DNA from: a virus
IMG/VR virus record: IMGVR_UViG_3300045988_116240
DNA length: 64,000 bases
Direction: 5' to 3' (one strand)
The stretch's first letter is position 1; every line of letters starts with the position of its first letter. Of the stretch, positions 8,914 to 39,631 are shown piece after piece. The position numbers and the translations under genes were made by a program. Below the pieces are notes generated by a model. It ran no database searches, was not told where the DNA came from, and saw only the letters and a list, made by a program, of their open reading frames with translations.

Positions 8914-11900
8914 TGTAAAACATTTATATGACGCTATGATTAGCCAAGGATATACGGGACTTGGCGATTTCTCTAATTTTGAGGGTAAGATGAAAGACTC
9001 TGGAAAGAGGAGAATGGTTTATGATTATTTGATACAAGATGATTATTTCTCCGAGATAGGCGATTTCTCCAAGTTCGAGAGTGCCCTAGGGTATTCGCCC
9101 GCAGAGAGGAAAGATTACGTTTCTCAATCAAGCGTTAATCCTGCACCTATCGCTTTAAGACAGGAGGTTGACGTGCCTATGAAGGATCAATCGGAATACG
9201 TTAATCCGTGGACGAACTCACCTGATTACAATTTTGAGTCCTTGCGTAAAAAAGGAAAGATTGAGACCGCTACTCCTCCACCTCCTACGGAGTATGAGAA
9301 GGATTCTTCTTTCATGAATACTTGGGTAGGAGACGCTATACAGAAACTTAACGCAGGAGGAGCCGATCTTGGTGCCGGTATATTTGGGGTCTTGGATAAG
9401 GCGGCTAAAGGGTTGGAATCCGCAACGGGAGGACTGATCCCACGTGGCGGGGCATTCAAGGATATCTCAGATATATTTAAGGCTGATGCGGAGTTTTCCC
9501 GGGCAAGGTCAAACAGATACAATGGCAAGGATTTCACCGATCTTTGGAAAGAAGGGAATTATATGGGTGCCATAGGTGATATAGCCTTGCAAGGCGTAGA
9601 GTCGCTTCCGATGTCAATCGGGGCCATGGCCGCTACAATGGCCGGAGCTCCAGCGGCCGGACTCGCAGGTATAGGGTCAATAGTAGCTAGCCAGAAATAT
9701 GATGATCTTGACCAGAATAACCCAAACATGGGAGAGTTCGCAAAGGTATCTAACGCTATTCTTACAGGTACGGCAGAATCCTTGTCTGAGATGCTGGGCG
9801 CTGGCGTATCCAAGGCTTGGATGTCAACCTTATTCAAGACGTTAGGAAAGGAAAAGGCACAAGAGGCTATCAAGCGTGGCATAATGGGTAAGATGCAAGA
9901 GTTCTATAAAAAATTCGGTATGTTTTTCGAGCCTGTAAATGAAGGTATCGAAGAGGTATCTTCCACGCTAGCGGAGAATATAACGGATAAGATAACAGGT
10001 GCGGATCCGGAAAGGGATTTGACCGATGGTGTATTGCAGAGTTTTGTCTATGGAATGGGAGGCGGCGCTTATTTTACTGGGGCCGGAGCGTTGGCTAAAG
10101 GTGCGCAATACGTAGCGGATAAAATAGGAGGCAAACAGGCTCAGCAGCCTATCACCGATTCCAATGTAACAGATCAAGGCGTTGAAACTCCTCCTCTATT
10201 AACTAAGTCTAGGTTTGCCGAGGCAGAGGAAGAAGGTCGAAATATGACTGATCCGGGCGATATACGGACGGCGAGCAAAAAGATGGAAGAGACAAGGCTT
10301 TCCCTATCTGGAATGGTTCCGGGTTTGGCTAGTACGATAGAAAGCTATGTGGATGATAAAGCTAGCGAGGCCCAAGTGATGAGTCTTCTTGATGGAGTTA
10401 ATGCGGATGCCCGTCCGTTAGCCGAGGATTTCTACGCTGATTATCTCAGGATATCCGGTTTGCAGGATCGTATAGGCGAGGAAATAGACAATGAGGTTGA
10501 AACTTACGTTGCCAATAATATTACTCCTTATGTTACCACGAATCCTGATGGTCAGTCTATCGTTACCATGGCTACGCTTAGCGAGGGAAATGAGGAAAGA
10601 CCTGTGTACGTTAGGAGTATCGAGGGAGATAAGGCCGTTATTTCCGATAACGGACAGGATCGGATGGTCTCGGTGAAAAGGTTGAGCGATATAGTAGAGC
10701 AAGATGCCGGTCATATGAGACGGACCTATGAGGATCAATTATTGGCTAACCGCCAGTCCGAGCTTGACATGACCATGCATCATAATCCCAAGACGCAATT
10801 ACCAAAGCCGGGGTTGATCGTATGGAACGGGGATAATGCGTTTATCCTTCAAGGACAAGATGAGAACGGTGATTGGATCGCTCAACCTGCGGCTTATGAT
10901 AGAGAAACCGGGCAGGTGACAGCCAAGAATGGCTCTTCTCCAGCAATGCCTATAACAGAGAATGAGATTCTTGATCTTCAAGATGCCATATATGACGCTC
11001 AACAAGTTAATGTGGTGTCGCCAGAGGATGATAATGTTGCAAGTGCTGATGCCGAGATAACCTCTGCACCTCCCGTGGAAGATGCGATCAACCAGCCAAC
11101 GAGTGAGATTGAGACGGAAGGTGCCATTGATCAGATAGCACAACCTAGCAATGTGGAGAATCTTTCCATGGTTATGCGAGAAGATGGTACACCCGATTTC
11201 GTATCATCAGGAACGGATATGGCCTTGGATTTCCTCTATGATAAATATGGCGATAAGATGCCAAGGAAGATCGAGGTGACGAGAAAGTCTTTCGATGAAA
11301 GCCTTAAAAAAGCGTCTGATGCCTTGGAAAAGGCGCAAGAGGCATACGATGATGCCCCTATCGGAAAAGAGGATAAGCCTGAGGCCGCATTGATAAAAGC
11401 CCGACAAGAATATGAGGCGATCAAGGTCGAGGCTGATTTCTGGGCTAATCTTGATGATGATATCAAGGAGGCCAGCAAGAAGCCGGGTGATGTCATAGCG
11501 AAGGAGATCTCCGTGATAGGTGATCCTATGAGCGGAGAGGAGCTTGCGGCCATGATGCTGGCTAATGGGGCGATCAAATTGACACGTGACAGTTACAAGA
11601 AAGAGACCGGTGCCGGGAATAATGAGACAGCGAGGATGTTCGGACTGTTCGCCTCTCCGGAGAAAGGCGGTGTTAATATAGAGAGGGCGGGTGAGATATT
11701 GGAGCTTGCCGATAGGGAGAATGGCACTAACTTCTTCGATGAGAACGATACGAACGCCGGAAGGGACGCTATCATAGAGGTCTTGTCTTCCGCTCATACA
11801 CGTGGAGACTTGATCGATTATGTCAAGAGGAACCGTGAGGCGATCGCTGAGCGTGAGAGACAGGCCGAGTACAACGCTTACGCTGAGTGGTGCGAGGAGA

Positions 11901-14900
11901 ATTATCATATGTCCCCGGAAGAATACGAGGCGTATGAGGAAAGCATGGTACGTGATTTCTCGGAGAAACAATTGACTGATGAGGAGCGAGGCGAGCTTGA
12001 TTCGCAAATCGTGGATGAAATACAGGCCATAATTGACGAACAAAATGAAATAGACGCTATCTTAGCGCAAAATAAACCGATAGAAAATGAAAACATTGAA
12101 GGAAATGACGAAAGCGGAGGCGATGGCTTACGCGAGGGAGGCGGCGAGGTACTGCCAAGAGAACAACTTGATCAGACCGGGGGAACTGGAGAGGTTGAGG
12201 GAAGAGAATCGGCTGGCCCCGACATTGATCGCACGGATGGAGCTACACAAGAAGGCTCATCAAGGGGACTAGTTCCTTTTGTCGCTCCTTCTCCAAAGGA
12301 GAATGAGACCCCATTGGACTATGCCGAGCGCATAGTTGAGGCTAAGAGATTGCACGAAGAGGAGCTAAAGGTTGATACCAATCCAACCGAGGCGCAGAAA
12401 GAGGCCGGCAATTACAAGAAAGGCCATATAAAGATAAACGGTTTTGATGTCACCATAGAGCAGCCCGCCGGTTCCGTCCGTTCCGGTAAGGACGCTAGCG
12501 GAAAGGAGTGGTCGCAGGTCATGAATAACACTTACGGTTACATTCGAGGTACTGAAAGTGTGGATGGTGATCATATAGACGTATTCCTAGGTCCGGATAT
12601 GAATAGTGACATGGTGTATGTCGTGGATCAGGTGAATACTGATGGCTCATTCGATGAGCATAAGGTTATGATGGGATTCCCTTCCTTGGAAGACGCTAGG
12701 TCCGCTTACTTGTCAAACTATGAGGAGGGTTGGCAAGGGTTAGGCAACATTACCGGGGTCACGTTGGATGGGTTCAAGAAATGGATTGATTCCTCGACTC
12801 GCAAAACAAAGCCCTTCTATGAGTATAAGGGAATTAAACAGGAGGAAAGCGATATTTCTAAAAATAATGATTCTGATAATTATAGCATTGTTTCCTCCCA
12901 ATATACTACCAAGAAAGGAAAAGTTCTTGATATGTGGCTATTGAAGTTCGGTAATGAATTATCGAAGGAACAGCAACGTGCCGCCAAAGAGCTAGCCAAG
13001 GCTGAAAAGGGTTGGTATGACAGGGAACAGCGAGGTTTCATGATGCGTAGCGATGAAAGCGCAAGGCGGTTGGCTGATACCATTCTTGGCGATACCGATG
13101 CCGTAAGCGATGCGCAACCTATTTCTCTTGAAGACACACGCAGGGTCGTAGAGCCTCAAAAGGTAAATGTAGAAAACCTTATTGGTGATATCAACGATAA
13201 GGGCAAAGCCAAATTGAGCGATCGTACCGTTACCCCTAGCGGTAACCGCCTTGTTACCGATGAACGGTATGCGGAACTCCGTGAGCGCATGCGCAAGAAA
13301 CTAGGCGGTCAAATGAATATGGGTGTTGATCCTGAGATATTGGCGATAGGTACTGAAATGGCGGTTTATCATATAGAGAAAGGCTTGCGTAAGTTCTCTG
13401 ATTACTCAAAGGCTATGATCGATGATCTAGGTGACGCTATACGACCGTATCTTAAATCATTCTACAATGGAGCGAGGGATTTACCGGAAGTAGAAGAGAA
13501 CGGATGGGATAAGGATATGACCACTTATGAGGATGTCCGTTCGTTTGATGTAGCTAATTTTGATAAGCCAGTCCCGGATATAATGGATGCCGCTGAGACC
13601 GTGGTTAAAGAGACTGAGATTGCCGGACAAGCGAGTGCCGCGGAGAAAAAAATAAAAAATAGCCGGAAAAAGCGAACGGACAACAAGGACAAACCATTAC
13701 CTTTGTATGGTAACGATTTATTCACTCCTAATAATATTAAAGACAATGAGCAAGGAAATTCAAGAGCGGATCAAGGCGTGGGAAGAAAAGCACGGGAAGA
13801 GGATCGAGGATCTGAACGCGGAGGAGACCGTGGAGGCGTGCATGGAAGTGATGTGCTTGACACGGAGCGAGGCCGAGGAATACCTATCAGCGACAGCGAC
13901 AAGCGGCCTGTTGTAAGGAATCAAAACAATTTCAGCTTCCCGGAGAAAGGTATTGAGCTTCCTTCCGGTGATATATCCAAGCTAAAAGCCAATATTGAGG
14001 CGATAGAAACGCTGAAAGACGTAGAGGACGGCCAAGGAAAACCTACCCCGGAACAACAAGCCAAGATGTCAAGGTACGTTGGATGGGGAGGTTTGGCCGA
14101 AGCCTTGAACGAAGGCAAATACAACGCACGTGACAACAATTGGACTAAGGATCGAAATTGGAATGATAAGTATCTACGTTATTATGAGAAACTAAAATCC
14201 TTATTAAGTAAAGAAGAGTTCGACAGTGCCGTCCGTTCCACGACAACCTCTCATTATACCCCGTCCGAGGTCGTGGAAAGCTTATGGGGAATAACGGAGA
14301 AACTTGGATTCAAGGGTGGCAATATCAGTGAACCCGCTATGGGTATAGGCAACATAATCGGTATGATGCCTAGGTCTATATCTGAAAACTCAAGTATAAG
14401 TGGGTTCGAGATAGATAGTTTATCCGGTCGTATGGCAAAGGCTTTATATCCTGACGCTAATATAAAGGTACAAGGATATGAGAAAGCGTTTTCTCCAAAC
14501 TCGAAAGACTTAGTTATCACCAACGTCCCATTCGGGAAAAACGCTCCATATGATAAGGTTTTAGATAAGCAATTCAGGAAGAAACTTGGTTCCTCTTATA
14601 ATCTCCATAATTATTTTATCCTAAAGGGGCTTCTGGAATTGAAAGAAGGTGGTCTCGGCGTATTCGTCACGTCCTCGGCTACGATGGATGGGGCCGATAG
14701 TAAGTTCCGTGAGTACGTGAGTGGGAACGGTTATGATCTGGTCGGAGCTATCCGATTGCCTAATGACGCTTTCCAGAAAGGGGCCGGCACGAGTGTCACG
14801 GCCGACATCGTTATATTCCGTAAAAGAAAGTATGGGGAACCTTCGAATGGGATAGGGTTCGCTACTACAACGCAAATAGGTGAAGGAACTTATATGGAGG

Positions 14901-17900
14901 ACGGGGATAAAAGGAGCAAGCCTATCATGGTTAACGAGTATTTCTCCAATCATCCCGATATGATGTTAGGTGATATGATGACTGCTTATGACGCTGGTAG
15001 CGGAGGTCTATATAGTGGAGCGTCCCAGACATTGAAAGCCAAACCCGGGGCCGATTTAAGCAAGGAGCTATTTAACGCTATTGATAACTTACCAAAGAAT
15101 ATCCTATCAGGTGTTGTAGAGACTAAAGGGCCGGAGGTTGTGGGTGACTCCACTTTGAAAGATGGTACTATTACCGTCCAGAATGGCAATGTCTTTGTTT
15201 TAGATGGGGACTCGTTAAAACCGATTAAGGCAAATCCTACGTTCGTTCATAATGGTAAGACCCGGAAAATAGCGGATGCGGTAAATGATTACAATGATAT
15301 AAAGAAAAATCTATACGATCTTATCCATGATGAGCAAACAAAGGGTGTGGATCCCGAGCCCGCGAGGAAAAGGCTAAACAAAGTATATGATGCTTTCGTG
15401 TCCAAATATGGGACACTTAACAGGAACAAGGCTTTGGACGATATTTTCGCCGAGGATGTTGAGCATGGATTACCCTTCTCTTTGGAAACCGTTAGAAGGG
15501 TACCTTCCACGACCGGAAAATCTATGGTATGGGAAGTCTCGAAAGCGGATGGTATCTTGAATAAGCGTGTAAGTTATCCATTCGAGCTACCGACAAAAGC
15601 GGATAATGTCTTGGATGCCGTCAATATAAGCAAGTCATATAAAGGTAATATTGATATACCTTATATCTCGGAGATAACGGGTATGGATGAGGTGAACGTG
15701 ACAAACGAGATACTAGAGAAGGGAATTGCTTATAGGGATCCTGTTACCGGCAATATAATAGATAAGAGCGAATATCTCTCTGGAAACGTAAAAGATAAGT
15801 TGGTAGAGGCTAAGGCGGCCTTGGAAGATCATCCGGAGTTTCAAAAAAACGTGGATGACTTGGAAGCCGTACAGCCAGAACGTATACCCTATGGTGAGAT
15901 AAGTTATCGACTGGGGACTACATGGATCCCGTCTGAGTTTATAAATAATTTCGCTGATAATGTACTGGGTATATCTTACGCCAACGCTAATTTTATCCCG
16001 GAGATCGGTGAGTATATTCTTGATAAGAGGGCGTTCATAACCGATTACGCTAAAGCCGGTCAATTCAAGACTGAGAGAATGGACGCTATAGACGTGTTCA
16101 AGGCCGCTCTTAACCAACGTAAACCCAAGGTTTATGACGAGATTAAATATTATGAGGATGGTAAGCAGAAAACGAGAAGGGTCGTAAACGAGCAGGAGAC
16201 ACAGGCCGTTGCCGAGAAAATATCCGACATGTCCGATAAGTTCGTGGAGTATATTGATTCTAAAACGATGTTTCATGGTCGTATTGAGGACGTGTATAAT
16301 GATAAATATAACAACTATGTACTAAAAAAGTATGACAAACCGGTTTTTGAGCATTATCCTAACGCTAATAAGAATATAACACTTAGGGATCACCAGAGCA
16401 AGGCGGTGCAACGTTGTCTATCCGAGAGCACGTTACTCGCTCACCAAGTCGGTACGGGAAAGACCTTTACCATGATTACGTCCGCTATGGAAATGAGACG
16501 GCTAGGTATAGCGAAGAAACCCATGATCGTTGTCCAAAACGCTACCCTAGAGGATTTCGTCCGTGACTTTTATAAACTGTATCCTTCCGCTAAGATTCTA
16601 TCTCCGACAAAGGAGGAGCGTAACGCCGATAATAGGACAAGGCTGTTCAATCTTATAGCTACCGGAGATTTTGACGCTATCGTTGTCCCACAGTCATTCA
16701 TGGCGTTTATCCCGGATAGCGAGGAAAGGAAAAAGGCATATATCCAAAAGCGTATAGATGATTTTGAGGAGGCTATCGATCGCATAGAAGACAAGGCTTT
16801 ACAGGAGAGATTGAAAAGGGAGGCCAAGAGTATGCGTGATTCTCTGGAAGGTATAAAGAAAGGGAAAAACGTAAAGGGCAAGGCAAAGACAGCGGAGACT
16901 ATCACGGCCAAGACGGAGCGTATTCTTGACAGGCGGACTGATAACGTCATGACGTTTGAGCAAATGGGTGTTGACGCTTTGTTCATTGACGAGGCGCATA
17001 ATTATAAGAAGATCGGGTTTCCAAGCAAGATGTCGAACGTTAAAGGTATCGATACGAGCGCGTCACAAAGGGCTAATAGTATGTTGCTAAAAGCCCAATG
17101 GATATCTGAGAATAATGGTGGTCGAAACGTGGTTCTGGCAACCGGTACCCCTATCACTAATACAATGGCAGAGGTCTGGACTATGATGAATTTCGTGGCA
17201 CCCGATATCCTAGACGCGTATAATATCAATAGCTTTGACGAGTTCGCTACCACTTTTGGAACGGTTGAGCCCTCATTGGAGTTTACCGCTACCGGTAACT
17301 TTAAGATAGCCGAGAGGTTCAAGAGCTATACGAATGTCCCGGAGCTTATAAAGGCGTTCAGGAGCCATACGGACGTTGTCTTGACAGAGGATGTCAAGGA
17401 GTTCAAGGAAGACAAGAATATCCCTAAGTTGAAAGACAATAAGATGACCAATGTCATTGTCGAGAAGAACGAGGACTTGGAGGATGTCATGCAAACCCTT
17501 ATCAAGGAATTAGAGGATTATAACAAATTGACAGGAAAAGAGAAGAAGGATAAGAGCGCGCTACCCTTGGTCGTGTTCAGCAAGGCTAAACAGGCTGCGA
17601 TTGACCTTCGCTTGCTTAATCCTACATTTCCCGACAATCCTGATAGCAAGACAAACAAGGTGGTCGATAACGTGTTGAGATTATATAAGGAGAGCGATAA
17701 GGACAAAGGCACGCAACTTATATTCTGCGATAGTTATCAATCCCCTTCTGAGACTCCAAAAATGGATTTATTCGATGTCGATTTATCTGTTCCTCAGTTT
17801 AATTTGTACAATGATATAAAGGAAAAGCTTATCAAGGGAGGTATTCCGTCTAATCAGATAGCTATCGTTGGCAATTATGAGGGAGAAAGGAGAAACGCCT

Positions 17901-20900
17901 TGTTCGATAAGGTCCGTAATGGGGATGTGCGCATTCTTATTGGAAGCACGGAGAAAATGGGAGTGGGTGTCAACGTGCAAGATCGTCTATTCGCCCTGCA
18001 TCATATTGACGCTCCAATCAGGCCTATGGATTTTGAGCAACGCAACGGTCGTATCTTACGACAAGGAAACTTATACGCCACATGGGATAAACCGGTGAAC
18101 ATCGTCACATATGGCGTTAAAGGTACCCTTGACGCTACCGCCTATGACAGGCTTCGTATAAAACAAAACTTCATCAACCAAATGATGAAAGGCGATATAT
18201 CGTCTCGTGTAATGGAGGAGCAAGACGATAGTGATCCGTCTGGAATGACATTTAGTGAGATGGCGGCGACGTTATCAGGAGATAAGACCGCCCAACTGCT
18301 GTTTGTGGCACAGAACAAGTTAAAGAAATTGCAAAACTCCAAGAGGAGCGATCTTAACAGTAAGTCTTCCATGCGTGACTCTATATCTAACTCCAAACTT
18401 AGGATACAAGAATACAACAGCCGGAAGGATATCATGGAAAGGAACGCCAATATCGTAAAAGAAAACTTCCCTGATGGGGTTGAGTCCGTGACTGTTAAAG
18501 GCAATACTTTCAGCGATGGTATATCGAATGAGCTTACGCCCATTATTGATGATTACTATGATAGATATACGCTTGACAGAAACACCCCTCCTCTGAAAAT
18601 CAGTCTCAATGGAGGAAAAGGCGAGGCAATCGTGCATTTCAATGAAGGTATGATGGTCTATAGCTTATATTTAGGAAAGGAAAAACTGGTTGAGAATCGT
18701 GATTTTAGCGGCGGCAAGGGTTTGATGGCTAGCATTGACAGGCAGTTGGGGATTCCCGCTAAATCCGTCTCAGATATAGCCGCTAAAATAAAGGCAGAGG
18801 AAAACAAGATAGCGGGATTAGAGGAAGCCGTTAAGAAACCGTGGGGAAAAGAGGATGAACTTAATGCGGCTCAGGCAGAGGTTAATGATCTGCAGAGACA
18901 ATTAGTTGAAAAAGCTAAAGCTGAGGATATTCAGTTAGAATCAACTCTTGACGTTGATGGTACGTTGGTAAAAGAGGAAGGAGAGACTCGATTTCGATTC
19001 ATGGGAGTAGATACAACTAATAATCAGGATAATGTAAGTTCTATTGAATCCTCAATCAACGATTGGTCAAACAAGCTTAATACCCCTGTCAGGGTAATCC
19101 ATGACGTGGACGATATAAACGATACGGATGAGAATATGTTGGCCCGTAAGAGAGATTCCAAAGGCTGGTATGATACTTCTACCGGGGAGATAGTCATAGT
19201 ATCACCTAATTCCACGTCCGTAGGTGACGCTCAAAGGACTTTCCTCCATGAGGTGGTAGGGCATCATGGGTTACGTGAGCTATTCAGGGATGATTTCGAT
19301 ACTTTCCTTGATAACGTGTATCGGAACGCCAACGAGGATATCCGGAAAAATATCATTGATCGGACTAAAGGCAATCCTCTTAACTTGCGTGAGGCTACAG
19401 AGGAATACCTCGCTGAATTAGCGGAACGTGGTTTCGATAACAAGGCCGAGCGTTCGTTATGGGAAAAGATCAAGGACTCTTTTCTTGATATGTTGAGAAA
19501 GGCAGGTATTAGTCTTGATTTCAAGTTATCGGATAATGACCTCCGTTATATTCTCTGGAGAAGCTATAAGAACTTGGAGCAAGGAAACTTGATGGATGTG
19601 GCCGAGGATATCGTGATGAGAAATAGATTAAGTCTTAACAATATAAATTTGAACGAAAATGGATCAATCGCAAGAGATATTGAACCTGAAAAAGGAAAAC
19701 AACCTTCTGAAACAAAAGGTACTGGAAGGGAACTCGAGACAATCGATGGCGTTGATGAGAACGGAAACGAAAGTGAACGAGACCATATCGACAAACCAAG
19801 GGGAGTTGAAAACGCTATTGACGGAACTGAAAACGCAACTGACCGAAATGGAAAAAAGACTGACGGCCAAGTTGACAACGATGGAGACCAACTTGACGGA
19901 GGAGATACGGGCGATAGGAACGGAAGTGTCCGGGATGGAATCGGCGGTGATCGGACTGTCATCGGACGTGCAGGATCTGAAAACAAGGGTAGAGGCGTTG
20001 GAGAAAGCGTAAGGGAAAAGACGGATGATTTCTCTTTCGCCGAGAAAACAATCCGTTTTAGGGAGAACGCGCGGAATGAGTCGGTATTGTTCGCTGATAA
20101 TGATATCCAAGTAGTAGAGAAACAGGTAGGTTCCGCCAAAGATCAATATGAGCGTACCCTATCTACATCGTCCTATCAATTTCAGGAGGCGTTTCAGGAT
20201 TCTATGCTAGGGCTTAAAACATTGCAGGATGCCGTGGCAAAGGCAACGAGGAGTCGTATATTGGATTATGAGAACGCTTATATGGCCGAGAATGCCCTTT
20301 CCTCCGTTAATGAAGCGGAGTTCAACGCTTATAGGAAAGCGGCTTTCGAGCCTATCTTAAAAGCGATCTCACGTTTGGAAAAGATGGGATCCACCATTGA
20401 TGAGATAAGGGATTACCTTATAACCAAGCATGGTATTGAGCGTAACAGGGAAATGGCCGTTAAACGAGTGTTGTCACAAAACTCGGAAACATATAAATCC
20501 CTGCTTGACGAGTATATCGGGAGAAGGAATGAGATACGTGAGAACGGTAGGTCTTGGGAAGAGCAGCAATCAGAAATGGATAGGCTTTCCGAGGAATACG
20601 GAGCTAATCTTTCTGATGATTTCAGCGGATTCACGTCCATGTATCCTAACGAGGATAACACGGGGTATGATCCGGATTCCGCAAGGAGATACGTATTGGA
20701 TTACGAGTCAAGATATGATACATCGGAATTATCGGCCTCTGTCAAAAGAGCCACTGACGCTATATTGGCAAAGCAACGGGATAGCGGGCTTATGAGCCAA
20801 AATACGTTTGATTCGATCAGCGATATGTATCAGTTCTATGTGCCTTTGCGTGGATGGGAGGAGACTACGGCAGATGAGGTTTACGCTTATCTTACATCCG

Positions 20901-23122
20901 AAAGCCAAACGTTCAACGCCCCTATAAAGACTGTCGTTGGGCGAAAGAGCAAGGCTGACGATCCTATAGCGACGATCGCTAATATGGCAGAGAGCGGAAT
21001 CATGCAAGGGAATAGGAACTTGATGAAGCAAAAGTTTTTGACAATGGTACAAAACCATAAGACGGATCTCGTGAGCGTAAGCGAAATGTGGGTTCGTCTT
21101 GACGAGGCTTCCGGTGAGTGGATCGCCGTTTTCCCGGATATACCATCTAACGCCAATCCGGAACAGGTGGAGTCTATCGTGGAATCTTTCAACAAACGCA
21201 TGGAGGAGCTATCCAATGAAAAAGGATCTAATGTTAGACGTTCAAGGGATGCTATAGGGATACCTTACAAGATATTGCCAAAGGACTTGAAGGAGCATCA
21301 AGTGATCGTAAAGAGAGCCGGCAAAGAATACTTACTTACCATAAACGGGAACCCAAGGGCCGCTCAAGCGTTGAACGGGCTTACAAACCCGGATAATACG
21401 AAAGGATGGTTTGGTACCGTGGAGAGATACGCCGGATGGCTGAATCGAAACTTGGCGGCTAATTTTACGACACGTAACCCGAATTTCATGGTAAGTAACT
21501 TCCTCCGTGACGCTCTTTATTCGAATACTACCGTATGGGTCAAGGAAAGTCCTGTATACGCATGGAAGTTCAATAAGAATTTCGCTATGGTAAACCCGAT
21601 CAATATGTATCGTCTGGTCAAGGGGTATGAGAACGGTACGTTGGATATGAGCGATCCATTGAATAAGGCATATCATGATTTTGTAATGAGAGGAGGAGAG
21701 ACCGGATACACCAATTTGAGAGACGTGGAAGCCAAGAAGAAGGCGATCCAAAAAGAACTTCAATACTCCAAGCAAAAGGTATCTATCGGAAAGGCTTTGA
21801 AAATACTAGGCGAATGGATGGACTTGTTCAATAAGAGCGTAGAGAATTGCGCTAGGTTCGCCGCGTTCATTACTTCTAGGGAAATGGGGCGGAGCATGGA
21901 TAAATCCATTTATGACGCTAAGGAGATATCCGTAAACTTCAATAAGAAAGGGGCGGGTTCAAAATTCTTGAATACTGAGGGGCAGACCAAGATAGGTAAC
22001 GCTAGCGCTTTCACGTCCGGATTGTCAAGATCCATGTATGTGTTTTGGAACGCTGGTGTACAAGGTATGTATAATTTCGGAAGGCTAGCCAAGGATAATC
22101 CCAAGAAATTCTTGGGGTTAGCGTCCTCTTTCTATTTACTTGGCACTATCATGCCTATGATCGCTGCCGCTTTTGGGGATGATGAAGATGATGATTACTA
22201 CGATCTTCCGGAATACGTGAGACGTAATAATATCTGTTTCCGTAACGGTGGAGGAAATTGGATTACAATTCCTATGCCCATAGAGTTAAGGGCTATATAT
22301 GGACTAGGAGAAATGTCTTCTGGAATAGTTTCCGGAAAGGAGAAGTATACCGATAAAAAGATGGCCATGAAGATAGCGGAGCAAATGTCACAGGTTCTTC
22401 CTTTGGACATGATGGAGGGAGGTGGAGGATTCTCCGCTTTCGTCCCAAGCTCGGTAAAGCCATTGATTGAGGCCGGAGATAACAAGGATTGGACAGGTTT
22501 GCCTTTATATAAGGATAACGATTTCAACAAGGGTATGCCTGAATGGACGAAGGCTTTCAAGAGCGTGGATCCCGCTATATTGGCGATGACTGAATATGCC
22601 AATAAGTTGACCGGTGGAGATAAATACACTATCGGTGCGGTTAATCTGAACCCGGCCATTATAGAGCATATATTGGACGGCTATTTCGGAGGTATCGAGG
22701 CTACACGTGCGCAGATGGTCAAATCCGCTGAAACCGCTTGGGGTAGTCGTGATTTTGACTGGAGGAATATCCCTGTCGGGAACCGTCTTATAAAAAGTGG
22801 TGATGAGCGGACGAAAAAGAAAGCCATAGATAACGCTTATTATGAGAATTTGGAGGAAATGGATAAGATCGGACAAAGATTGAGAGGATATCGTAAAGAA
22901 TTGTCTAATCCACAGAACGATAGTTTTGATATAGCAGAGTATCAGAAAAAATTGAATGATCTTATGATGAGCGATGAATATCGTGGATATGTAGAGTTTA
23001 ATAATCTTAACAAATTGTATCAATCAATGGGTGAGTATTTGAAGAAGGTAGATGATGAAAGATTGGAAATGGAGTTATACGATTTGAAAGCTATGATGAA
23101 TGAGATAGCTAATGGTAAATAG
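8858..23122 (+). CDS. giant polyvalent protein (4754 aa): pyrophosphatase-like + N6-adenine MTase + SNF2/DEAD helicase + zincin-like + C-terminal membrane-associated region
   Basis: A single uninterrupted 14.3 kb ORF. Motifs are listed in the sub-features below. The true start may be the ATG at 8903 (MDSNVKH). Confidence 0.9.
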   Translation: MKEEQKIQTKNTAGFMDSNVKHLYDAMISQGYTGLGDFSNFEGKMKDSGKRRMVYDYLIQDDYFSEIGDFSKFESALGYSPAERKDYVSQSSVNPAPIALRQEVDVPMKDQSEYVNPWTNSPDYNFESLRKKGKIETATPPPPTEYEKDSSFMNTWVGDAIQKLNAGGADLGAGIFGVLDKAAKGLESATGGLIPRGGAFKDISDIFKADAEFSRARSNRYNGKDFTDLWKEGNYMGAIGDIALQGVESLPMSIGAMAATMAGAPAAGLAGIGSIVASQKYDDLDQNNPNMGEFAKVSNAILTGTAESLSEMLGAGVSKAWMSTLFKTLGKEKAQEAIKRGIMGKMQEFYKKFGMFFEPVNEGIEEVSSTLAENITDKITGADPERDLTDGVLQSFVYGMGGGAYFTGAGALAKGAQYVADKIGGKQAQQPITDSNVTDQGVETPPLLTKSRFAEAEEEGRNMTDPGDIRTASKKMEETRLSLSGMVPGLASTIESYVDDKASEAQVMSLLDGVNADARPLAEDFYADYLRISGLQDRIGEEIDNEVETYVANNITPYVTTNPDGQSIVTMATLSEGNEERPVYVRSIEGDKAVISDNGQDRMVSVKRLSDIVEQDAGHMRRTYEDQLLANRQSELDMTMHHNPKTQLPKPGLIVWNGDNAFILQGQDENGDWIAQPAAYDRETGQVTAKNGSSPAMPITENEILDLQDAIYDAQQVNVVSPEDDNVASADAEITSAPPVEDAINQPTSEIETEGAIDQIAQPSNVENLSMVMREDGTPDFVSSGTDMALDFLYDKYGDKMPRKIEVTRKSFDESLKKASDALEKAQEAYDDAPIGKEDKPEAALIKARQEYEAIKVEADFWANLDDDIKEASKKPGDVIAKEISVIGDPMSGEELAAMMLANGAIKLTRDSYKKETGAGNNETARMFGLFASPEKGGVNIERAGEILELADRENGTNFFDENDTNAGRDAIIEVLSSAHTRGDLIDYVKRNREAIAERERQAEYNAYAEWCEENYHMSPEEYEAYEESMVRDFSEKQLTDEERGELDSQIVDEIQAIIDEQNEIDAILAQNKPIENENIEGNDESGGDGLREGGGEVLPREQLDQTGGTGEVEGRESAGPDIDRTDGATQEGSSRGLVPFVAPSPKENETPLDYAERIVEAKRLHEEELKVDTNPTEAQKEAGNYKKGHIKINGFDVTIEQPAGSVRSGKDASGKEWSQVMNNTYGYIRGTESVDGDHIDVFLGPDMNSDMVYVVDQVNTDGSFDEHKVMMGFPSLEDARSAYLSNYEEGWQGLGNITGVTLDGFKKWIDSSTRKTKPFYEYKGIKQEESDISKNNDSDNYSIVSSQYTTKKGKVLDMWLLKFGNELSKEQQRAAKELAKAEKGWYDREQRGFMMRSDESARRLADTILGDTDAVSDAQPISLEDTRRVVEPQKVNVENLIGDINDKGKAKLSDRTVTPSGNRLVTDERYAELRERMRKKLGGQMNMGVDPEILAIGTEMAVYHIEKGLRKFSDYSKAMIDDLGDAIRPYLKSFYNGARDLPEVEENGWDKDMTTYEDVRSFDVANFDKPVPDIMDAAETVVKETEIAGQASAAEKKIKNSRKKRTDNKDKPLPLYGNDLFTPNNIKDNEQGNSRADQGVGRKAREEDRGSERGGDRGGVHGSDVLDTERGRGIPISDSDKRPVVRNQNNFSFPEKGIELPSGDISKLKANIEAIETLKDVEDGQGKPTPEQQAKMSRYVGWGGLAEALNEGKYNARDNNWTKDRNWNDKYLRYYEKLKSLLSKEEFDSAVRSTTTSHYTPSEVVESLWGITEKLGFKGGNISEPAMGIGNIIGMMPRSISENSSISGFEIDSLSGRMAKALYPDANIKVQGYEKAFSPNSKDLVITNVPFGKNAPYDKVLDKQFRKKLGSSYNLHNYFILKGLLELKEGGLGVFVTSSATMDGADSKFREYVSGNGYDLVGAIRLPNDAFQKGAGTSVTADIVIFRKRKYGEPSNGIGFATTTQIGEGTYMEDGDKRSKPIMVNEYFSNHPDMMLGDMMTAYDAGSGGLYSGASQTLKAKPGADLSKELFNAIDNLPKNILSGVVETKGPEVVGDSTLKDGTITVQNGNVFVLDGDSLKPIKANPTFVHNGKTRKIADAVNDYNDIKKNLYDLIHDEQTKGVDPEPARKRLNKVYDAFVSKYGTLNRNKALDDIFAEDVEHGLPFSLETVRRVPSTTGKSMVWEVSKADGILNKRVSYPFELPTKADNVLDAVNISKSYKGNIDIPYISEITGMDEVNVTNEILEKGIAYRDPVTGNIIDKSEYLSGNVKDKLVEAKAALEDHPEFQKNVDDLEAVQPERIPYGEISYRLGTTWIPSEFINNFADNVLGISYANANFIPEIGEYILDKRAFITDYAKAGQFKTERMDAIDVFKAALNQRKPKVYDEIKYYEDGKQKTRRVVNEQETQAVAEKISDMSDKFVEYIDSKTMFHGRIEDVYNDKYNNYVLKKYDKPVFEHYPNANKNITLRDHQSKAVQRCLSESTLLAHQVGTGKTFTMITSAMEMRRLGIAKKPMIVVQNATLEDFVRDFYKLYPSAKILSPTKEERNADNRTRLFNLIATGDFDAIVVPQSFMAFIPDSEERKKAYIQKRIDDFEEAIDRIEDKALQERLKREAKSMRDSLEGIKKGKNVKGKAKTAETITAKTERILDRRTDNVMTFEQMGVDALFIDEAHNYKKIGFPSKMSNVKGIDTSASQRANSMLLKAQWISENNGGRNVVLATGTPITNTMAEVWTMMNFVAPDILDAYNINSFDEFATTFGTVEPSLEFTATGNFKIAERFKSYTNVPELIKAFRSHTDVVLTEDVKEFKEDKNIPKLKDNKMTNVIVEKNEDLEDVMQTLIKELEDYNKLTGKEKKDKSALPLVVFSKAKQAAIDLRLLNPTFPDNPDSKTNKVVDNVLRLYKESDKDKGTQLIFCDSYQSPSETPKMDLFDVDLSVPQFNLYNDIKEKLIKGGIPSNQIAIVGNYEGERRNALFDKVRNGDVRILIGSTEKMGVGVNVQDRLFALHHIDAPIRPMDFEQRNGRILRQGNLYATWDKPVNIVTYGVKGTLDATAYDRLRIKQNFINQMMKGDISSRVMEEQDDSDPSGMTFSEMAATLSGDKTAQLLFVAQNKLKKLQNSKRSDLNSKSSMRDSISNSKLRIQEYNSRKDIMERNANIVKENFPDGVESVTVKGNTFSDGISNELTPIIDDYYDRYTLDRNTPPLKISLNGGKGEAIVHFNEGMMVYSLYLGKEKLVENRDFSGGKGLMASIDRQLGIPAKSVSDIAAKIKAEENKIAGLEEAVKKPWGKEDELNAAQAEVNDLQRQLVEKAKAEDIQLESTLDVDGTLVKEEGETRFRFMGVDTTNNQDNVSSIESSINDWSNKLNTPVRVIHDVDDINDTDENMLARKRDSKGWYDTSTGEIVIVSPNSTSVGDAQRTFLHEVVGHHGLRELFRDDFDTFLDNVYRNANEDIRKNIIDRTKGNPLNLREATEEYLAELAERGFDNKAERSLWEKIKDSFLDMLRKAGISLDFKLSDNDLRYILWRSYKNLEQGNLMDVAEDIVMRNRLSLNNINLNENGSIARDIEPEKGKQPSETKGTGRELETIDGVDENGNESERDHIDKPRGVENAIDGTENATDRNGKKTDGQVDNDGDQLDGGDTGDRNGSVRDGIGGDRTVIGRAGSENKGRGVGESVREKTDDFSFAEKTIRFRENARNESVLFADNDIQVVEKQVGSAKDQYERTLSTSSYQFQEAFQDSMLGLKTLQDAVAKATRSRILDYENAYMAENALSSVNEAEFNAYRKAAFEPILKAISRLEKMGSTIDEIRDYLITKHGIERNREMAVKRVLSQNSETYKSLLDEYIGRRNEIRENGRSWEEQQSEMDRLSEEYGANLSDDFSGFTSMYPNEDNTGYDPDSARRYVLDYESRYDTSELSASVKRATDAILAKQRDSGLMSQNTFDSISDMYQFYVPLRGWEETTADEVYAYLTSESQTFNAPIKTVVGRKSKADDPIATIANMAESGIMQGNRNLMKQKFLTMVQNHKTDLVSVSEMWVRLDEASGEWIAVFPDIPSNANPEQVESIVESFNKRMEELSNEKGSNVRRSRDAIGIPYKILPKDLKEHQVIVKRAGKEYLLTINGNPRAAQALNGLTNPDNTKGWFGTVERYAGWLNRNLAANFTTRNPNFMVSNFLRDALYSNTTVWVKESPVYAWKFNKNFAMVNPINMYRLVKGYENGTLDMSDPLNKAYHDFVMRGGETGYTNLRDVEAKKKAIQKELQYSKQKVSIGKALKILGEWMDLFNKSVENCARFAAFITSREMGRSMDKSIYDAKEISVNFNKKGAGSKFLNTEGQTKIGNASAFTSGLSRSMYVFWNAGVQGMYNFGRLAKDNPKKFLGLASSFYLLGTIMPMIAAAFGDDEDDDYYDLPEYVRRNNICFRNGGGNWITIPMPIELRAIYGLGEMSSGIVSGKEKYTDKKMAMKIAEQMSQVLPLDMMEGGGGFSAFVPSSVKPLIEAGDNKDWTGLPLYKDNDFNKGMPEWTKAFKSVDPAILAMTEYANKLTGGDKYTIGAVNLNPAIIEHILDGYFGGIEATRAQMVKSAETAWGSRDFDWRNIPVGNRLIKSGDERTKKKAIDNAYYENLEEMDKIGQRLRGYRKELSNPQNDSFDIAEYQKKLNDLMMSDEYRGYVEFNNLNKLYQSMGEYLKKVDDERLEMELYDLKAMMNEIANGK
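12404..12830 (+). other. domain: inorganic-pyrophosphatase-like module of the giant protein
   Basis: NYKKGHIKINGFDVTIEQPAGSVRSG...YGYIRGTESVDGDHIDVFLG...DEHKVMMGF resembles the family I PPase signature YGxIPxT..DGDPxDVLV. Confidence 0.45.
13930..14960 (+). other. domain: N6-adenine DNA methyltransferase module
   Basis: SRYVGWGGLAEAL; AdoMet motif I ISEPAMGIGNIIG (about 14330); catalytic motif IV DLVITNVPFGK (14522-14536). Confidence 0.75.
16350..18150 (+). other. domain: SF2 (SNF2/DEAD-like) helicase module
   Basis: Motif I AHQVGTGKTF (16441-16470), motif II FIDEAHNYKK (16982-17002), motif III LATGTPITN, motif V GSTEKMGVGVNVQ, motif VI QRNGRILRQGN (18038-18070). Confidence 0.8.
19000..19560 (+). 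other. domain: zincin-like metallopeptidase-type module (non-classical HExxxH)
   Basis: TFLHEVVGHHGLRELF (19241-19270). The spacing is HEVVGH rather than HExxH, so catalytic competence is uncertain. Confidence 0.45.
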
Positions 23123-24404: not shown

Positions 24405-24480
24405 AACCGTACTTGCTCTGCTAACGAAGTATATTTCCTATGGGATGAAGCTATTGATCGTTTTGAGGTATCTAAAATAG

Positions 24481-24515
24481 AAAACTCCCCAAATCCTCAC
24501 GGACAAGGGAGTTTT
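24481..24515. terminator. two-tier hairpin (family member H3), terminator-like
   Basis: aaaactccc...tcc-tcac-gga...gggagtttt followed by tatt. There are T-rich tracts on both strands. Confidence 0.5.
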
Positions 24516-24949
24516 TATTATTTAACTATAATCTATATGAATGGTTTTCAGACAACCTTAAACGATCCGATTCTCACGAACTAGAGCGTTTGTAATATCT
24601 AAATCCATATCTAAACAAAGACATACTTAATCATCATTGCCGATCCTCCCGGAATAGCAACGGTGGGTATATCCGTCTTAAAATGCTTCCCAATACCACC
24701 CAAGGGAAGCGGGAAATATTTATTCAAACTATATTTTATGCCATAAGGAAAGGAGTGTGCCCCCATCCTCCAAAGCTATCCCCTTGACATAAATATACCT
24801 CTGGTTCTCACGAAAGAGCGGTATGACATTGATAAAATTATTTTATGAATACAACCTAGTGTAATATCTTTAAGTAATGACTCCAGTCCATCACGGATGA
24901 GAGCCATAAGGGGTTATAAATATATAACATACCATATACGCATAAAAAA

Positions 24950-25087
24950 CGTGGCGCCGTCGCAACTACCAAGACCCGGCGTCCCCACGCCAACATAACA
25001 GGTAGTAAGCAACGGCCCACGTCTTATATATAGATTATATATACAAATAACGTGGGCGTATTGTTGCTATCGGCTCCCTGTTATGTT
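24950..25087. other. compound structured element (two adjacent long imperfect hairpins)
   Basis: cgtggcgccg pairs with cggcg-(tcc)-ccacg across 24950-24989. In 24992-25087, aacataacagg/cctgttatgtt, agcaac/gttgct and cccacgt/acgtggg enclose a 27-nt AT-only loop. Confidence 0.5.
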
Positions 25088-25270
25088 TATAAATTTGGGG
25101 AATTTAGGTCTTTATAGGAGACGATATCTTTAACGCCACAATGTGTGTCACGTCTTATATTCTAATCAGTGACTACGCAAATATACTCTATTTATTTTAT
25201 ATTAGTAAAAAATAAGTCGTATTTTATTTATCTAATATTGATTTTTACAGGGGAAACGTTCATGCGCACG

Positions 25271-27385
25271 CTATAAACTCGACTCATTTTTGGGATATGA
25301 ATCAAGATATCCCGTTGATTCTTCTTTGATTATAGAAGGCTTAGGCATATCCTCTGATATGAGCGCTCCTATCATGTCTGTCATCAATATATCGTCGTGA
25401 TTGCCACGACCGGGAATATTACCGTAACTACCGTCCGGACGTTGCTCGTATTTTGACGCTTCCTTGTACATACGCTCATCCGGGTCTATAAACATATCGT
25501 CCTCGAACGCCACTATGAAATTATCCACCATGTCCTGCTTGGTCTTCTTGTTGGTCTGGAAGCCTATCTTCTTGTATATGCCGTTCCTTATGTCCTCGGG
25601 ATCCGTCGCCGCTCGCATGTAAAGATTAGGGTAGATATCCTCTATCTTTTTCAGTATGCCACGAATATGATCGCCTTCCTCCACGAACTCGGATGCCTCT
25701 GATTTTTTCTTATCAAACGTATTGCTCTCGAAGGCGAGAAGGGCGTTCTTGTAGTATCTGGCGATCTTGACGGCTTTGTAGGCGAGCCAGTCATATCGTA
25801 TATGACCGTGCCATCTGGCTACCACCTCCGGCTTTCCTCCGCTAAATCGTAAATTCCATCTGTTTATCACTGTTATACATGAGGGGTCTGAGTTCTTGCT
25901 ACGTCCACCGACATCGACAATAACAAGATACTCGTTGGATGTCCTTGTATCATCGGGCCTCTTCCAGATTCTCAACAGGCCGTTCGGATTCTTGGTGAGA
26001 ATTATCCTCTTGGTCTTCTCTGATTGGGATATGTCGCCAATGAACTCCGGGGGTGATACGTATCTTTCCCGCATTACCTCGATCGTATAGATATTGAACA
26101 CGAGATTACCGGAATACTTGAAACACTCGACATCATCGGATGGTGCCTCGGATGCCATCGAGGCGTGATCATGAAACGAGGCCCTTTTCTTGATATACCA
26201 TTTGATGTGCTCCAGCGTAGCTCCTTTTTCCCATAGAGACCATAGATACTGTCCCGGCTCGCTATTGTCATTAGGGGAGGTCGTGACATCCCTTCCCTCT
26301 AATAGATCCAGTATGAAAAGCCGGGTCTCTTTCTTGTCCTTGAATCTTATCATGTCGTTCTCGATAAAGAAGAACGGTATGAATAGCGCCTTACGGGATG
26401 AAGTGCCCTCCTTGGCCATTTGGTACTCATCATAGAAATAACCGGCCATGCCATTAGCTGTAGACTCGGAGATCTCCATGGTCAACGGTCTCTCCAATAT
26501 ATTCGAGTCTATGTTTGTTATAACCTGCTCCGCCGATTTGCCATCCGTTGTTTTCCAGTAGGCTACCTCCGAGAAGTGAGCCATGGCATAGTCCATACCA
26601 CGTGTTGACTCGAAATTCTCATAAGATGCCACGGTTATCACGTTATCACGTACCTTGTTCCCGGACGGGTCGGTGATTATGGAGTCGGACGCCGAATGCT
26701 CGTAAGGGGCGAATTGTAGCTTGTCAACACCATATATAAATCCCGGGATATTATCGAGAACCTTTTTATACATGGCCTTGATACGTTTGGCGGTATCTTT
26801 CGTCTGGGCTATAATTACGGAATACCATCCTTCCATGACGAATAGCTGTATCCACGCCATATAAAGCTGTACCAAGGTGGAACCTCCCCATTGCCGGGCT
26901 TTCAATAATATTATACGGATCGGGACTCCCTTATGCCTCATTTCCTCCAGAACGGATAGCACGTAACGTTGGGCGTAATTAAGCTCGAAGGGGATCATTT
27001 CTCCCGCCTCTTTCGACTTGATCTTAAATAACGAGAAAAAGGCGAAGGAGGGGTCTCTCGAGCAACGAGCCCAAAATAGCATGTTGGCCACGTCCTCCTC
27101 ATTTATCCCATCTGAATCCGGGTACAGCTCGTTGAACCTTATCGTGTAGTCCTTTATGGAACCAGCTTTCAGAACATCTTGATACAGATCGTTCTTGAAA
27201 ACCTCCTCGGTAAGCCACTGCACCCTTATGGGGTAATCATCTATGACAACCCTATGGCTATGCCCCTCCATTCCACGCCCCGTGAATTGGTCGTGCGTGC
27301 CGAATATATTTTTCAGCCTCTTGTTATTCTCGGCCAATATAGACTCAACCTCTTCCGTGAACGCTAATTTTCTGTATGACTCCAT
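25271..27385 (-). CDS. terL: terminase large subunit
   Basis: 704 aa. ATPase region IILLKARQWGGSTLVQ, and a C-terminal RNaseH-like nuclease region (YLVIVDVGGRSKNSDPSCITV, GNHDDILMTD). Confidence 0.8.
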   Translation of the reverse strand: MESYRKLAFTEEVESILAENNKRLKNIFGTHDQFTGRGMEGHSHRVVIDDYPIRVQWLTEEVFKNDLYQDVLKAGSIKDYTIRFNELYPDSDGINEEDVANMLFWARCSRDPSFAFFSLFKIKSKEAGEMIPFELNYAQRYVLSVLEEMRHKGVPIRIILLKARQWGGSTLVQLYMAWIQLFVMEGWYSVIIAQTKDTAKRIKAMYKKVLDNIPGFIYGVDKLQFAPYEHSASDSIITDPSGNKVRDNVITVASYENFESTRGMDYAMAHFSEVAYWKTTDGKSAEQVITNIDSNILERPLTMEISESTANGMAGYFYDEYQMAKEGTSSRKALFIPFFFIENDMIRFKDKKETRLFILDLLEGRDVTTSPNDNSEPGQYLWSLWEKGATLEHIKWYIKKRASFHDHASMASEAPSDDVECFKYSGNLVFNIYTIEVMRERYVSPPEFIGDISQSEKTKRIILTKNPNGLLRIWKRPDDTRTSNEYLVIVDVGGRSKNSDPSCITVINRWNLRFSGGKPEVVARWHGHIRYDWLAYKAVKIARYYKNALLAFESNTFDKKKSEASEFVEEGDHIRGILKKIEDIYPNLYMRAATDPEDIRNGIYKKIGFQTNKKTKQDMVDNFIVAFEDDMFIDPDERMYKEASKYEQRPDGSYGNIPGRGNHDDILMTDMIGALISEDMPKPSIIKEESTGYLDSYPKNESSL

Positions 27386-38082: not shown

Positions 38083-38574
38083 ATGTACCGTTACCTCTCC
38101 TACATATCCGACCTCGCTAACTGGGCCAAGTCCATCGCCATAGCTGCCGTAGTAACGGCGATGGACTTTGTTTCGCCTATCGAGAACTTCTTGGTGGTGA
38201 TCCTGTCGCTGGCCTTCATCGATACGTTCTGGGGGTTGGCCGCGGATCACGGGGATTTCCGGAAGAGCAAGTTCATCCGTAGCTGGGTGTACATGCTAGT
38301 CTATTTCCTGATCATAATCATCTCGTTCTGGATAGGCGTGATGATGGATATATCGGAGGATAACGCCAAGGCTTTCGTATCTTGGATCACGTGGGCGATG
38401 ATATGGTTTTATGGTACTAATGTATTGAAGAACATGGGCAAGGTATTCCCGGATAACAAGGTGATAGCCTTCTTGTATTGGGTTGCCGCCGTGAAATTTA
38501 TCAGAAAGGTCAATTTCTTGGATGAGTATAACAAGACAAAGAATAAAAAAGGCTCCCCAGATCCAAAAGGATAG
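38083..38574 (+). CDS. holin (multi-TM)
   Basis: Start trimmed to MYRYLSY. It has three or four TM helices (LVVILSLAFIDTFWGLAADHGDFRKSKF) and sits immediately upstream of the amidase. Confidence 0.55.
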   Translation: MYRYLSYISDLANWAKSIAIAAVVTAMDFVSPIENFLVVILSLAFIDTFWGLAADHGDFRKSKFIRSWVYMLVYFLIIIISFWIGVMMDISEDNAKAFVSWITWAMIWFYGTNVLKNMGKVFPDNKVIAFLYWVAAVKFIRKVNFLDEYNKTKNKKGSPDPKG

Positions 38575-38663
38575 GGGAGCCGAATAAATTTTCGCTTCCT
38601 GTCTTTCGCAAGGGAGGATAGCAAGGTTAACAAAGCGCATAAAAGTATAAAAAAATAATTGAT

Positions 38664-39589: not shown

Positions 39590-39595
39590 AAAAGG

Positions 39596-39631
39596 TTAAG
39601 CCCACCGAATCTCACGATCAAGCGAGCTTAA
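39596..39631. terminator. two-tier hairpin (family member H7) after the lysis cassette
   Basis: ttaagc...atc-tcac-gat...gcttaa followed by tatttattt. Confidence 0.45.

Follow-up and report, generated by a model that had tools for sequence, protein, structure and literature searches.

A conserved, exchangeable non-coding cassette beside the terminase gene of a temperate Bacteroides podophage, with a predicted chain of host-style small RNAs

The window analyzed here, a stretch of 64,000 nucleotides (nt), is nearly the complete IMG/VR viral record IMGVR_UViG_3300045988_116240 (64.1 kb) and is that of a temperate Bacteroides podophage. It encodes an integrase (4785-6269), a virion or ejection protein of 4,754 amino acids (aa; 8858-23122) and, on the - strand, the large terminase (terL, 25271-27385) and the portal (42262-44244). 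Between a two-gene island on the + strand, whose open reading frame (ORF) ends at 24404, and the stop codon of terL lies a gap at 24405-25270, the flanking genes being convergent in the window. As the initial annotation of this DNA had reported, these 866 nt form the longest interval of the window in which no ORF reaches 60 codons, whatever the frame, the runner-up being 384 nt. The functional core of the gap is a conserved non-coding cassette of 724 nt (24474-25197), assigned to the - strand and having sharp mosaic borders at both ends, which may specify a chain of small RNAs built like those of the bacterial host.

Most of the features previously described within the gap were recovered. Four UCAC/GUGA-capped hairpins were found, with apices at 24494-24503, 24571-24580, 24805-24814 and, more weakly, 24886-24900, as were two duplicated words (TGTAATATCT at 24591 and 24860; CACGTCTTATAT at 25018 and 25149) and a compound hairpin at 24950-25087. 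The motif YTCACGRA is present three times within 320 nt on one strand, with an expectation of ~8 for both strands of the whole window. Relative to dinucleotide shuffles, folding of the gap gave z-scores of -4.5 for the + strand and -6.1 for the - strand. A pseudoknot that had been proposed between GGTGGG and CCACCC was mis-registered, these words not being complementary in antiparallel orientation over all 6 nt; pairing is possible solely between GGTGG (24662-24666) and CCACC (24697-24701), and the resulting 5 base pairs (bp) are at chance level and exhibit no covariation. A riboswitch-like switch was rejected, alternative pairing of the two CACGTCTTATAT copies with two complements being 8 to 23 kcal/mol worse than the minimum free energy (MFE) structure.

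A copy of the block was detected in BF1-TP2, a sewage phage of B. fragilis with an integrase and a repressor, where positions 46532-47257 are 96.3% identical to window positions 24474-25197 and the similarity stops abruptly at both ends. This copy has gp66 on one side and a gene for a DnaJ-domain protein on the other, in DNA that bears no annotation, and both flanks differ from those of the window. Genome-wide, BF1-TP2 and the window form a mosaic of segments at 68 to 99% identity and unrelated stretches, of which the block is one segment. BF1-TP2 was the only public phage with similarity to the block, and no mention of BF1-TP2 was found in the literature. Homologs were recruited by exact-word scans of IMG/VR, in which different words returned the same ~65 contigs, with 41 distinct full-length sequences at 87 to 99% identity. 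The block is kept in related gut Bacteroides phages, whereas a lack of conservation there had been named as a ground for rejecting the original proposal of a structured element. A scan of one genome per prokaryotic species (185,579 scanned) yielded two chance matches only, nhmmer found no detectable homolog at the loci of terL relatives with 35 to 59% identity, and a model of the last 157 nt of the cassette (R1, whose E-values are rough) detected only generic hairpins in 99 diverse phage loci.

The borders of the block recurred at 24474, with some contexts reaching 24409-24436, and at 25197. At least 10 unrelated flank classes were observed for the 500 nt on the left and three for the 500 nt on the right, namely, terL as in the window, gp66 as in BF1-TP2 and the type found at locus L067. 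In L067, a divergently transcribed virion-protein gene is present on the right and an anti-repressor gene on the other side, while in BF1-TP2 the genes flanking the block are co-directional and the block is located 4.4 kb from terL. An Ant or Rha gene was found within one to two genes of the cassette in both BF1-TP2 and L067. Pfam and PADLOC searches of the swapped neighbor genes gave nothing useful except a DnaJ domain.

Seven ORFs of 25 codons or more are present in the window copy of the block, of which even the best preserved was intact in no more than 29 of 41 distinct sequences; each was broken by a frameshift, a stop or loss of the start in at least 12 copies, and insertions or deletions (indels) of 1, 3, 5 and 39 nt were tolerated. 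Nucleotide diversity (pi) was determined for 43 sequences sharing the window type of terL (the window and 42 IMG/VR contigs). Values of 0.058 for four-fold degenerate sites of terL and 0.0024 for codon positions 1 and 2 compare with 0.017 for the block and 0.0075 for 24990-25160, such that diversity was 3.4-fold below that of the four-fold sites for the block and 8-fold below for its right part. The AU-rich linkers were as conserved as the stems. A 9-bp helix, UUUAUGUCA/UGGCAUAAA (24735-24793, - strand), carries an optional 39-nt apical hairpin (24744-24782). In nine distinct copies a deletion had removed exactly this helix tip, leaving a perfect stem, UUUAUGCC-AAUU-GGCAUAAA, in which a U-G pair was improved to C-G.

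Natural variants indicated that the cassette is dispensable, a conclusion which, on these sequence comparisons, is strong but not absolute. The locus L097 (record G001) is 98% identical to the window over 5.1 kb including terL, with its terL being 96% identical at the DNA level and 98% at the protein level; all of the DNA from terL to the end of the giant virion-protein gene, comprising the two-gene island and the block, is replaced by one ORF of 490 aa on the other strand, and the block was nowhere in the record. A second provirus, G002, retains 24474-24846 but lacks the next 354 nt, with 24847-25191 and hence the whole right module described below missing, the deletion having occurred between two copies of TTATTTTAT (window 24838-24846 and 25192-25200). 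Both records are proviruses of 79 to 83% estimated completeness and are possibly defective. This natural 354-nt deletion was seen in one IMG/VR provirus (G002 / L074 / L102 / L139). The 490-aa ORF of L097 (5195-6667, - strand of the locus) had no Pfam family and a faint LmuA-like PADLOC match (E = 0.003).

The cassette ends, on the - strand, in a hairpin belonging to a widely distributed family. This terminal two-tier hairpin (24481-24515) reads ACUCCC-UU-GUCC-GUGA-GGAU-UU-GGGGAGU followed by UUUUCUAUUUU and has the features of the GUGA-capped family, namely, the conserved core at the apex, an internal loop of the 1 x 2 type and an outer stem with complementary arms. Its apical core, GUCCGUGAGGAU, at 24504-24493 with the outer stem ACUCCC/GGGAGU, recurs exactly at 670 and 57757, and variants of the core are found within the cassette at 24581 (GUUCGUGAGAAU) and 24654 (UUCCGGGAGGAU). 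An invariant 17-nt apex, CCGUCCGUGAGGAUAUG, was present in more than 108 IMG/VR stretches. With UUUUCUAUUUU after the hairpin on the - strand and UUUUUAUUAUUU after it on the + strand, 24515-24481 is predicted to be a bidirectional intrinsic terminator. Covariation was detected in the outer stem of the family: 17 distinct versions contained 26 double-change cells, in comparison to 9.7 ± 2.5 in shuffles, with a covariation score of 0.369 versus 0.125; neither value was reached in any of 500 shuffles, and slid controls were much lower.

Most of the family hairpins occur directly after GUGUUUUUCAUGGUAUUAGAUUU, the 5′ seed of the Bacteroides small RNAs (sRNAs) FopS and GibS. FopS RNAs, which measure ~65 to 70 nt, combine a seed that is single-stranded with a hairpin terminator; they act as repressors of susC mRNAs and associate with RbpB, an RRM protein (10.1101/2023.12.22.572801). 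The same paper noted one copy in a predicted Bacteroides phage. GibS and BTnc231 have been validated by Northern blotting (PMC7366714). The window contains a FopS-like copy on the - strand (57803-57736), directly upstream of a split tRNA-Leu-like element, in which the first 23 of 23 nt are identical to the Rfam FopS seed and are followed by the GUGA hairpin CCCCGCC-GUCCGUGAGGAUAU-GCGGGG, whose core is identical to that of the last hairpin of the cassette. The corresponding Rfam-scored stretch (57803-57686) reached 32.2 bits for FopS (gathering score, 56) and 29.6 bits for GibS. The IMG/VR stretches that were retrieved contained at least 27 distinct versions of this module of seed plus hairpin.

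A covariance model (R2) covering both the seed and the two-tier GUGA hairpin of the phage FopS-like module was applied to the entire window with filtering switched off. It produced 23 matches, led by the copy of the module itself at 57803-57736, and five of these tile the left part of the cassette end to end, all on the - strand. Chance would not be expected to place five non-overlapping matches on one strand of so small a part (0.4%) of the search space. Each of the units so delimited, whose borders are predicted, consists of an AU-rich stretch with a UAGAU-type word and then a two-tier hairpin with a GNRA cap. Unit 1 (24877-24939; 7.3 bits) has a hairpin with a GUGAU loop (24879-24905) whose G-U pairs exist only on the - strand, where an A-to-G change at 24880 turns G-U into G-C. 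Unit 2 (24795-24854; 7.8 bits), with its GUGA hairpin at 24798-24822, is paralogous to unit 4 in the R1 alignment, and unit 3 (24685-24753; 11.7 bits) carries the hairpin GCUUCCC/GGGAAGC (24686-24712), a paralog of the terminal hairpin by the same alignment, followed by AUUUUAAG. A further hairpin with a GGGA tetraloop and a UUCC-GGGA-GGAU core occupies 24636-24661 of the - strand. Unit 4 (24561-24628; 12.7 bits) combines the seed-like UUUAGAUAUGGAUUUAGAUAUUAC with a two-tier GUGA hairpin (24560-24592). Unit 5 (24483-24537), with the AU-rich single strand UAUAGAUUAUAGUUAAAUAAUAAAA and the terminal hairpin, was the best match of the cassette to the FopS-like module (24.1 bits, model positions 14 to 67, E of ~4e-4). 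On a larger scale, 24863-24675 resembles 24630-24474, the former being an internal paralog by R1 (19.8 bits).

The right module of the cassette (24940-25175, - strand) is its most conserved part and takes the form of an extended rod of ~190 to 230 nt, paired over 25139-24951. A rod of ~190 nt was strongly preferred by the ensemble, with 25139-25095 pairing with 24990-24951 and the compound hairpin 25087-24992 at the apex. The MFE of the module was -86.4 kcal/mol (z = -6.9 for the - strand and -5.6 for the + strand), and a local hairpin at 24989-24950 was 15 kcal/mol worse than the rod. On the - strand only, U6 (24949-24944) comes after the GC-rich helix at the base of the rod (24951-24960). 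Some 7 nt upstream of the module is a candidate -7 promoter box (25178-25185, - strand). Its sequence is TATATTCG in 38 distinct copies and TATATTTG in the remaining three, the window included; the border around it is variable, but positions 25180-25186 are invariant and 25179 is A or G only. L067, where the neighboring gene is divergent, would require an internal promoter.

Every strand-specific feature points to the - strand, and the RNA of the cassette is, on this basis, proposed to have the sequence of this strand. The loops on this strand are GUGA, GUGA, GUGA, GGGA and GUGAU, that is, GNRA tetraloops closed by C-G, and the sole loop substitution observed, GUGA to GCGA, retains GNRA. Hairpins of the C-GUGA-G type with at least 3 bp numbered eight on the - strand of the window and one on the + strand. 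MFE structures contained 31 G-U pairs on the - strand versus 13 on the + strand, and 31 of 232 pairs were lost when the - strand structure was mirrored onto the + strand. In the terminal hairpin, changes from C-G to U-G to U-A at 24508/24488 and from A-U to G-U at 24512 and 24513 are allowed on the - strand but produce A-C mismatches on the + strand; similar changes that pair on the - strand only were found at 24638, 24687 and 24880 and in the 25171-25148 hairpin. U-tracts follow hairpins on the - strand. The word UWWAGAUAY occurs in five copies (24476, 24603, 24615, 24872 and 25132; range, 24468-25132), such that five of the 10 copies on both strands of the whole window are in the cassette and all of these are on the - strand.

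Known RNA classes were then compared. At gathering scores, Rfam detected two tRNAs only in the whole window, and at E values up to 10 the 1.3-kb region gave weak sRNA matches and no large-RNA family; the absence of ROOL, GOLLD and HEARO matches agrees with the caution of the initial annotation, which did not assign the region to any known class. The BTnc231 model (RF04180) reached 24.0 bits (gathering score, 80.4) at 24481-24621 on the - strand over model positions 1 to 154, with an E of 0.003 to 0.023 by region. The aligned stretch shares the BTnc231 architecture, with GAUUUAGAU matched exactly in the single-stranded 5′ part, UCGUGAGA in the internal GUGA-capped hairpin (hairpin 1) and a terminator capped by CGUGAG, which amounts to a resemblance only. 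GibS (RF04182) gave 18.8 bits (gathering score, 115) at 24474-24622 over the full model length. FopS (RF04319) had no match in the cassette at E values up to 10, and its conserved 5′ seed, GUGUUUUUCAUGGUAUUAGAU, was not found there. As none of the three gathering scores is reached, membership in FopS, GibS or BTnc231 is rejected, and the likeness is architectural only: a 5′ part that is AU-rich and single-stranded and bears a word of the UUAGAU type, one or more C-GUGA-G hairpins, a terminator and a unit size of ~65 to 150 nt. The differences are that the FopS signature start, GUGUUUUUCAUGG, is absent from the cassette and that the three host RNAs are dispersed single genes, whereas the units of the cassette stand in tandem behind a 200-nt rod.

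Comparable accessory RNAs exist in other temperate phages. DicF, IpeX, AgvB/AsxR and StxS are sRNA genes of enterobacterial prophages. The Pas family likewise comprises prophage-encoded sRNA genes of enterobacteria (10.64898/2026.05.13.724894). The cassette shares with such genes an accessory, non-coding and terminator-bounded nature, a location in variable moron regions of temperate phages and conservation as a block with changing neighbors. It differs in the host phylum, which here is not known to have Hfq, in the lack of any sequence relation and in joining several units within 724 nt. The RNA-based immunity regions of P22 (sar), P1/P7 (c4) and P4 (CI RNA) consist of small structured RNAs near anti-repressor (ant) genes. 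The vicinity of an Ant or Rha gene in BF1-TP2 and L067 recalls these regions, but no ant gene is near the cassette in the window. No antisense overlap or complementarity to phage genes longer than 14 nt was detected.

Taken as a whole, these analyses favor a reading to which we give about an even chance: the tract would be an accessory, moron-like, non-coding cassette of temperate Bacteroides podophages from whose - strand a chain of host-style small RNAs is predicted to be produced. Transcription of the - strand would generate the rod-shaped RNA of ~190 to 230 nt (25175-24944) first and then five units of ~60 to 70 nt, each with an AU-rich single strand and a GNRA-capped two-tier hairpin, with the last unit ending at the putative bidirectional intrinsic terminator. 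The product could be one precursor that is cut later or a set of nested RNAs ending at successive hairpins. As the build is that of the base-pairing Bacteroides sRNAs FopS, GibS and BTnc231, of which FopS targets the start regions of susC, action in trans appears likeliest, either in the lysogen or in the infected cell, with the single-stranded stretches pairing with host mRNAs; also or instead, the RNAs might occupy the host RRM protein RbpB. A more specific version of this proposal, in which a chained RNA copying the FopS/GibS build and part of the seed rewires RbpB-FopS control of SusC-type outer-membrane transporters, is doubtful. If true, a possible benefit would be altered glycan uptake or the removal of receptors for competing phages, and the cassette would act on a core regulatory network of a major gut symbiont, as a phage sRNA array or as a sponge for protein or RNA.

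Several observations weigh against a chain of small RNAs. Four of the five R2 unit matches are individually insignificant (E values of 0.36 to 8.8), the R2 E-values are rough by construction and the scores rest largely on the hairpins, while the cassette falls below every Rfam gathering score. No convincing promoter was identified, the -7-like box being TATATTCG in 38 of 41 copies, and a search for the promoter consensus TTTG-N17-23-TAnnTTTG, which was uninformative, showed no enrichment. Pairs of the - strand are broken at 24503 in 10 distinct copies and at 24579 in nine. In the last 157 nt (unit c), pair-counting had no power, with 97.8% of cells pairing in comparison to 97.7% in shuffles. 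The covariation proposed as a check gave a divided answer: the outer stem of the terminal-hairpin family covaries, but RNAalifold detected no signal on either strand within the cassette, where the analysis is uninformative because all of the homologs are close relatives and diversity is too low. The low diversity may also be due in part to recent exchange of the mosaic block rather than to selection, as diversity is just as low (pi = 0.016) in the 73-nt spacer that adjoins the block.

The principal rival is a passive stack of terminator or RNA-stabilizing hairpins that insulates transcription units, with the palindromes serving as recombination borders of a moron hotspot and no RNA acting in trans. 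This is unlikely, though the location of the tract between convergent genes in the window, the bidirectional terminator predicted at its left end with hypervariable gene content beyond, the negative promoter search and the predicted use of same-build two-tier hairpins as ordinary terminators elsewhere (38550-38583 and 39595-39631) are what it would lead one to expect. A length of 724 nt is far beyond the needs of termination, however, and the linkers are conserved like the stems, at a diversity 3- to 8-fold below that of synonymous sites. Moreover, the cassette is kept where there is no convergent collision, its neighbors being co-directional in BF1-TP2 and divergent in L067, and neither the tiling into units nor the repetition of UWWAGAUAY would be expected of terminators alone. 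Decayed coding sequence, or very small peptides (<25 aa) below the ORF test, is highly improbable. ORFs of 27 to 54 codons do occur in the window copy and the neighborhood is a hotspot of gene gain and loss, but every ORF of at least 25 codons is disrupted in no fewer than 12 of the 41 distinct sequences, the tolerated indels include lengths of 1, 5 and 39 nt besides 3 nt, and constraint is evenly spread with no three-base period.

The initial annotation had itself offered two candidates, a large structured RNA and an origin or packaging region. The former holds in so far as the tract is non-coding, conserved and rich in hairpins that are under selection; a single ornate RNA of ~700 nt of the ROOL/GOLLD type, forming one structured particle, is very unlikely. 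The cassette is similar to ROOL and GOLLD in its several hundred nt, its phage or prophage location, its many hairpins and the lack of a known function, and the strong folding z-scores, the abundance of GNRA tetraloops (which often dock into receptors in large RNAs) and some long-range pairs drawn by RNAalifold are compatible with such a particle. It differs from them in being modular, partly deletable and provided with internal terminator-like elements, and no covariance model of ROOL, GOLLD, HEARO or any other large RNA in Rfam matched. In particular, natural variants without the right 354 nt or the 39-nt hairpin keep the remainder, a GC-rich helix followed by U6 stands in mid-tract, the left 460 nt tile into five units of small-RNA size that resemble tandem paralogs, and RNAalifold gave no long-range covariation. 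The second candidate, here widened to any DNA-level site (a replication origin, pac/cos, a cruciform palindrome or a cluster of regulator binding sites with TTCnnnnGAA-like cores), has only a slim chance of being correct. In its favor, the right module forms an imperfect palindrome of 190 bp, which has GC-rich arms around a center of A/T alone and folds almost equally well on both strands (z = -6.9 and -5.6; five versus four G-U pairs), terL adjoins the tract in the window, and short words are repeated. An essential cis-acting site would, however, be found in every close relative at a fixed place relative to the terminase or replication genes, and this is not the case: a relative with a 96 to 98% identical terL lacks the whole tract and provirus G002 lacks the palindrome, with the reservation that both are the incomplete proviruses noted above. 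A role as ori, pac or cos is disfavored because the tract has been lost while the cognate terminase is nearly unchanged and because of its surroundings in other phages: in BF1-TP2 a distance of 4.4 kb separates it from terL, and in L067 it has a virion gene on one side and ant on the other. These two are among the gene contexts of the tract, which number at least three and are unrelated. A search of the tract for iterons and tandem repeats found none, and the strand-biased GNRA loops and G-U pairs of its left part would be unexpected of a DNA site.

RNA regulation in gut Bacteroides has recently been opened up by work on GibS, FopS and RbpB, in which the part played by phages was mentioned only in passing. 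If the cassette is expressed, temperate Bacteroides phages would carry host-style small-RNA arrays as accessory cargo, kept under selection and moved as a block between phages. As BF1-TP2 is a cultured phage that has a laboratory host, its copy provides a defined, deletable locus for studying the reprogramming of a dominant gut symbiont by a prophage. Even if the tract is only a stack of terminators, the evidence against the gap being a replication origin or packaging site is strong but not absolute.

Several minor observations were made on the hairpin family and on the genomes compared. The family is widespread in gut phage contigs (690-640, 57765-57739 and 24515-24481 in the window; loci L140 to L247), where its members follow tRNA-Met or FopS-like seeds or close the cassette. 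A weak FopS-seed-like stretch on the - strand at 23245-23183 (10.4 bits with R2, E of 1.4) reads CCAUGGU..AAUAGAUUUAGGUU followed by a hairpin and overlaps, in antisense orientation, the first part of the island gene encoding 252 aa. Two-tier terminators of the family build are present between + strand genes at 38550-38583 and 39595-39631, one reading GGCUCCCC-U-AUCC-UUUU-GGAU-CU-GGGGAGCC and then U6 and the other being GUGA-capped. Finally, the portal gene is 15 kb from terL in the window but directly after terL in BF1-TP2 (42262-44244 of the window versus 42276-44144 of BF1-TP2), indicating that the packaging and head module has been rearranged between otherwise related phages.

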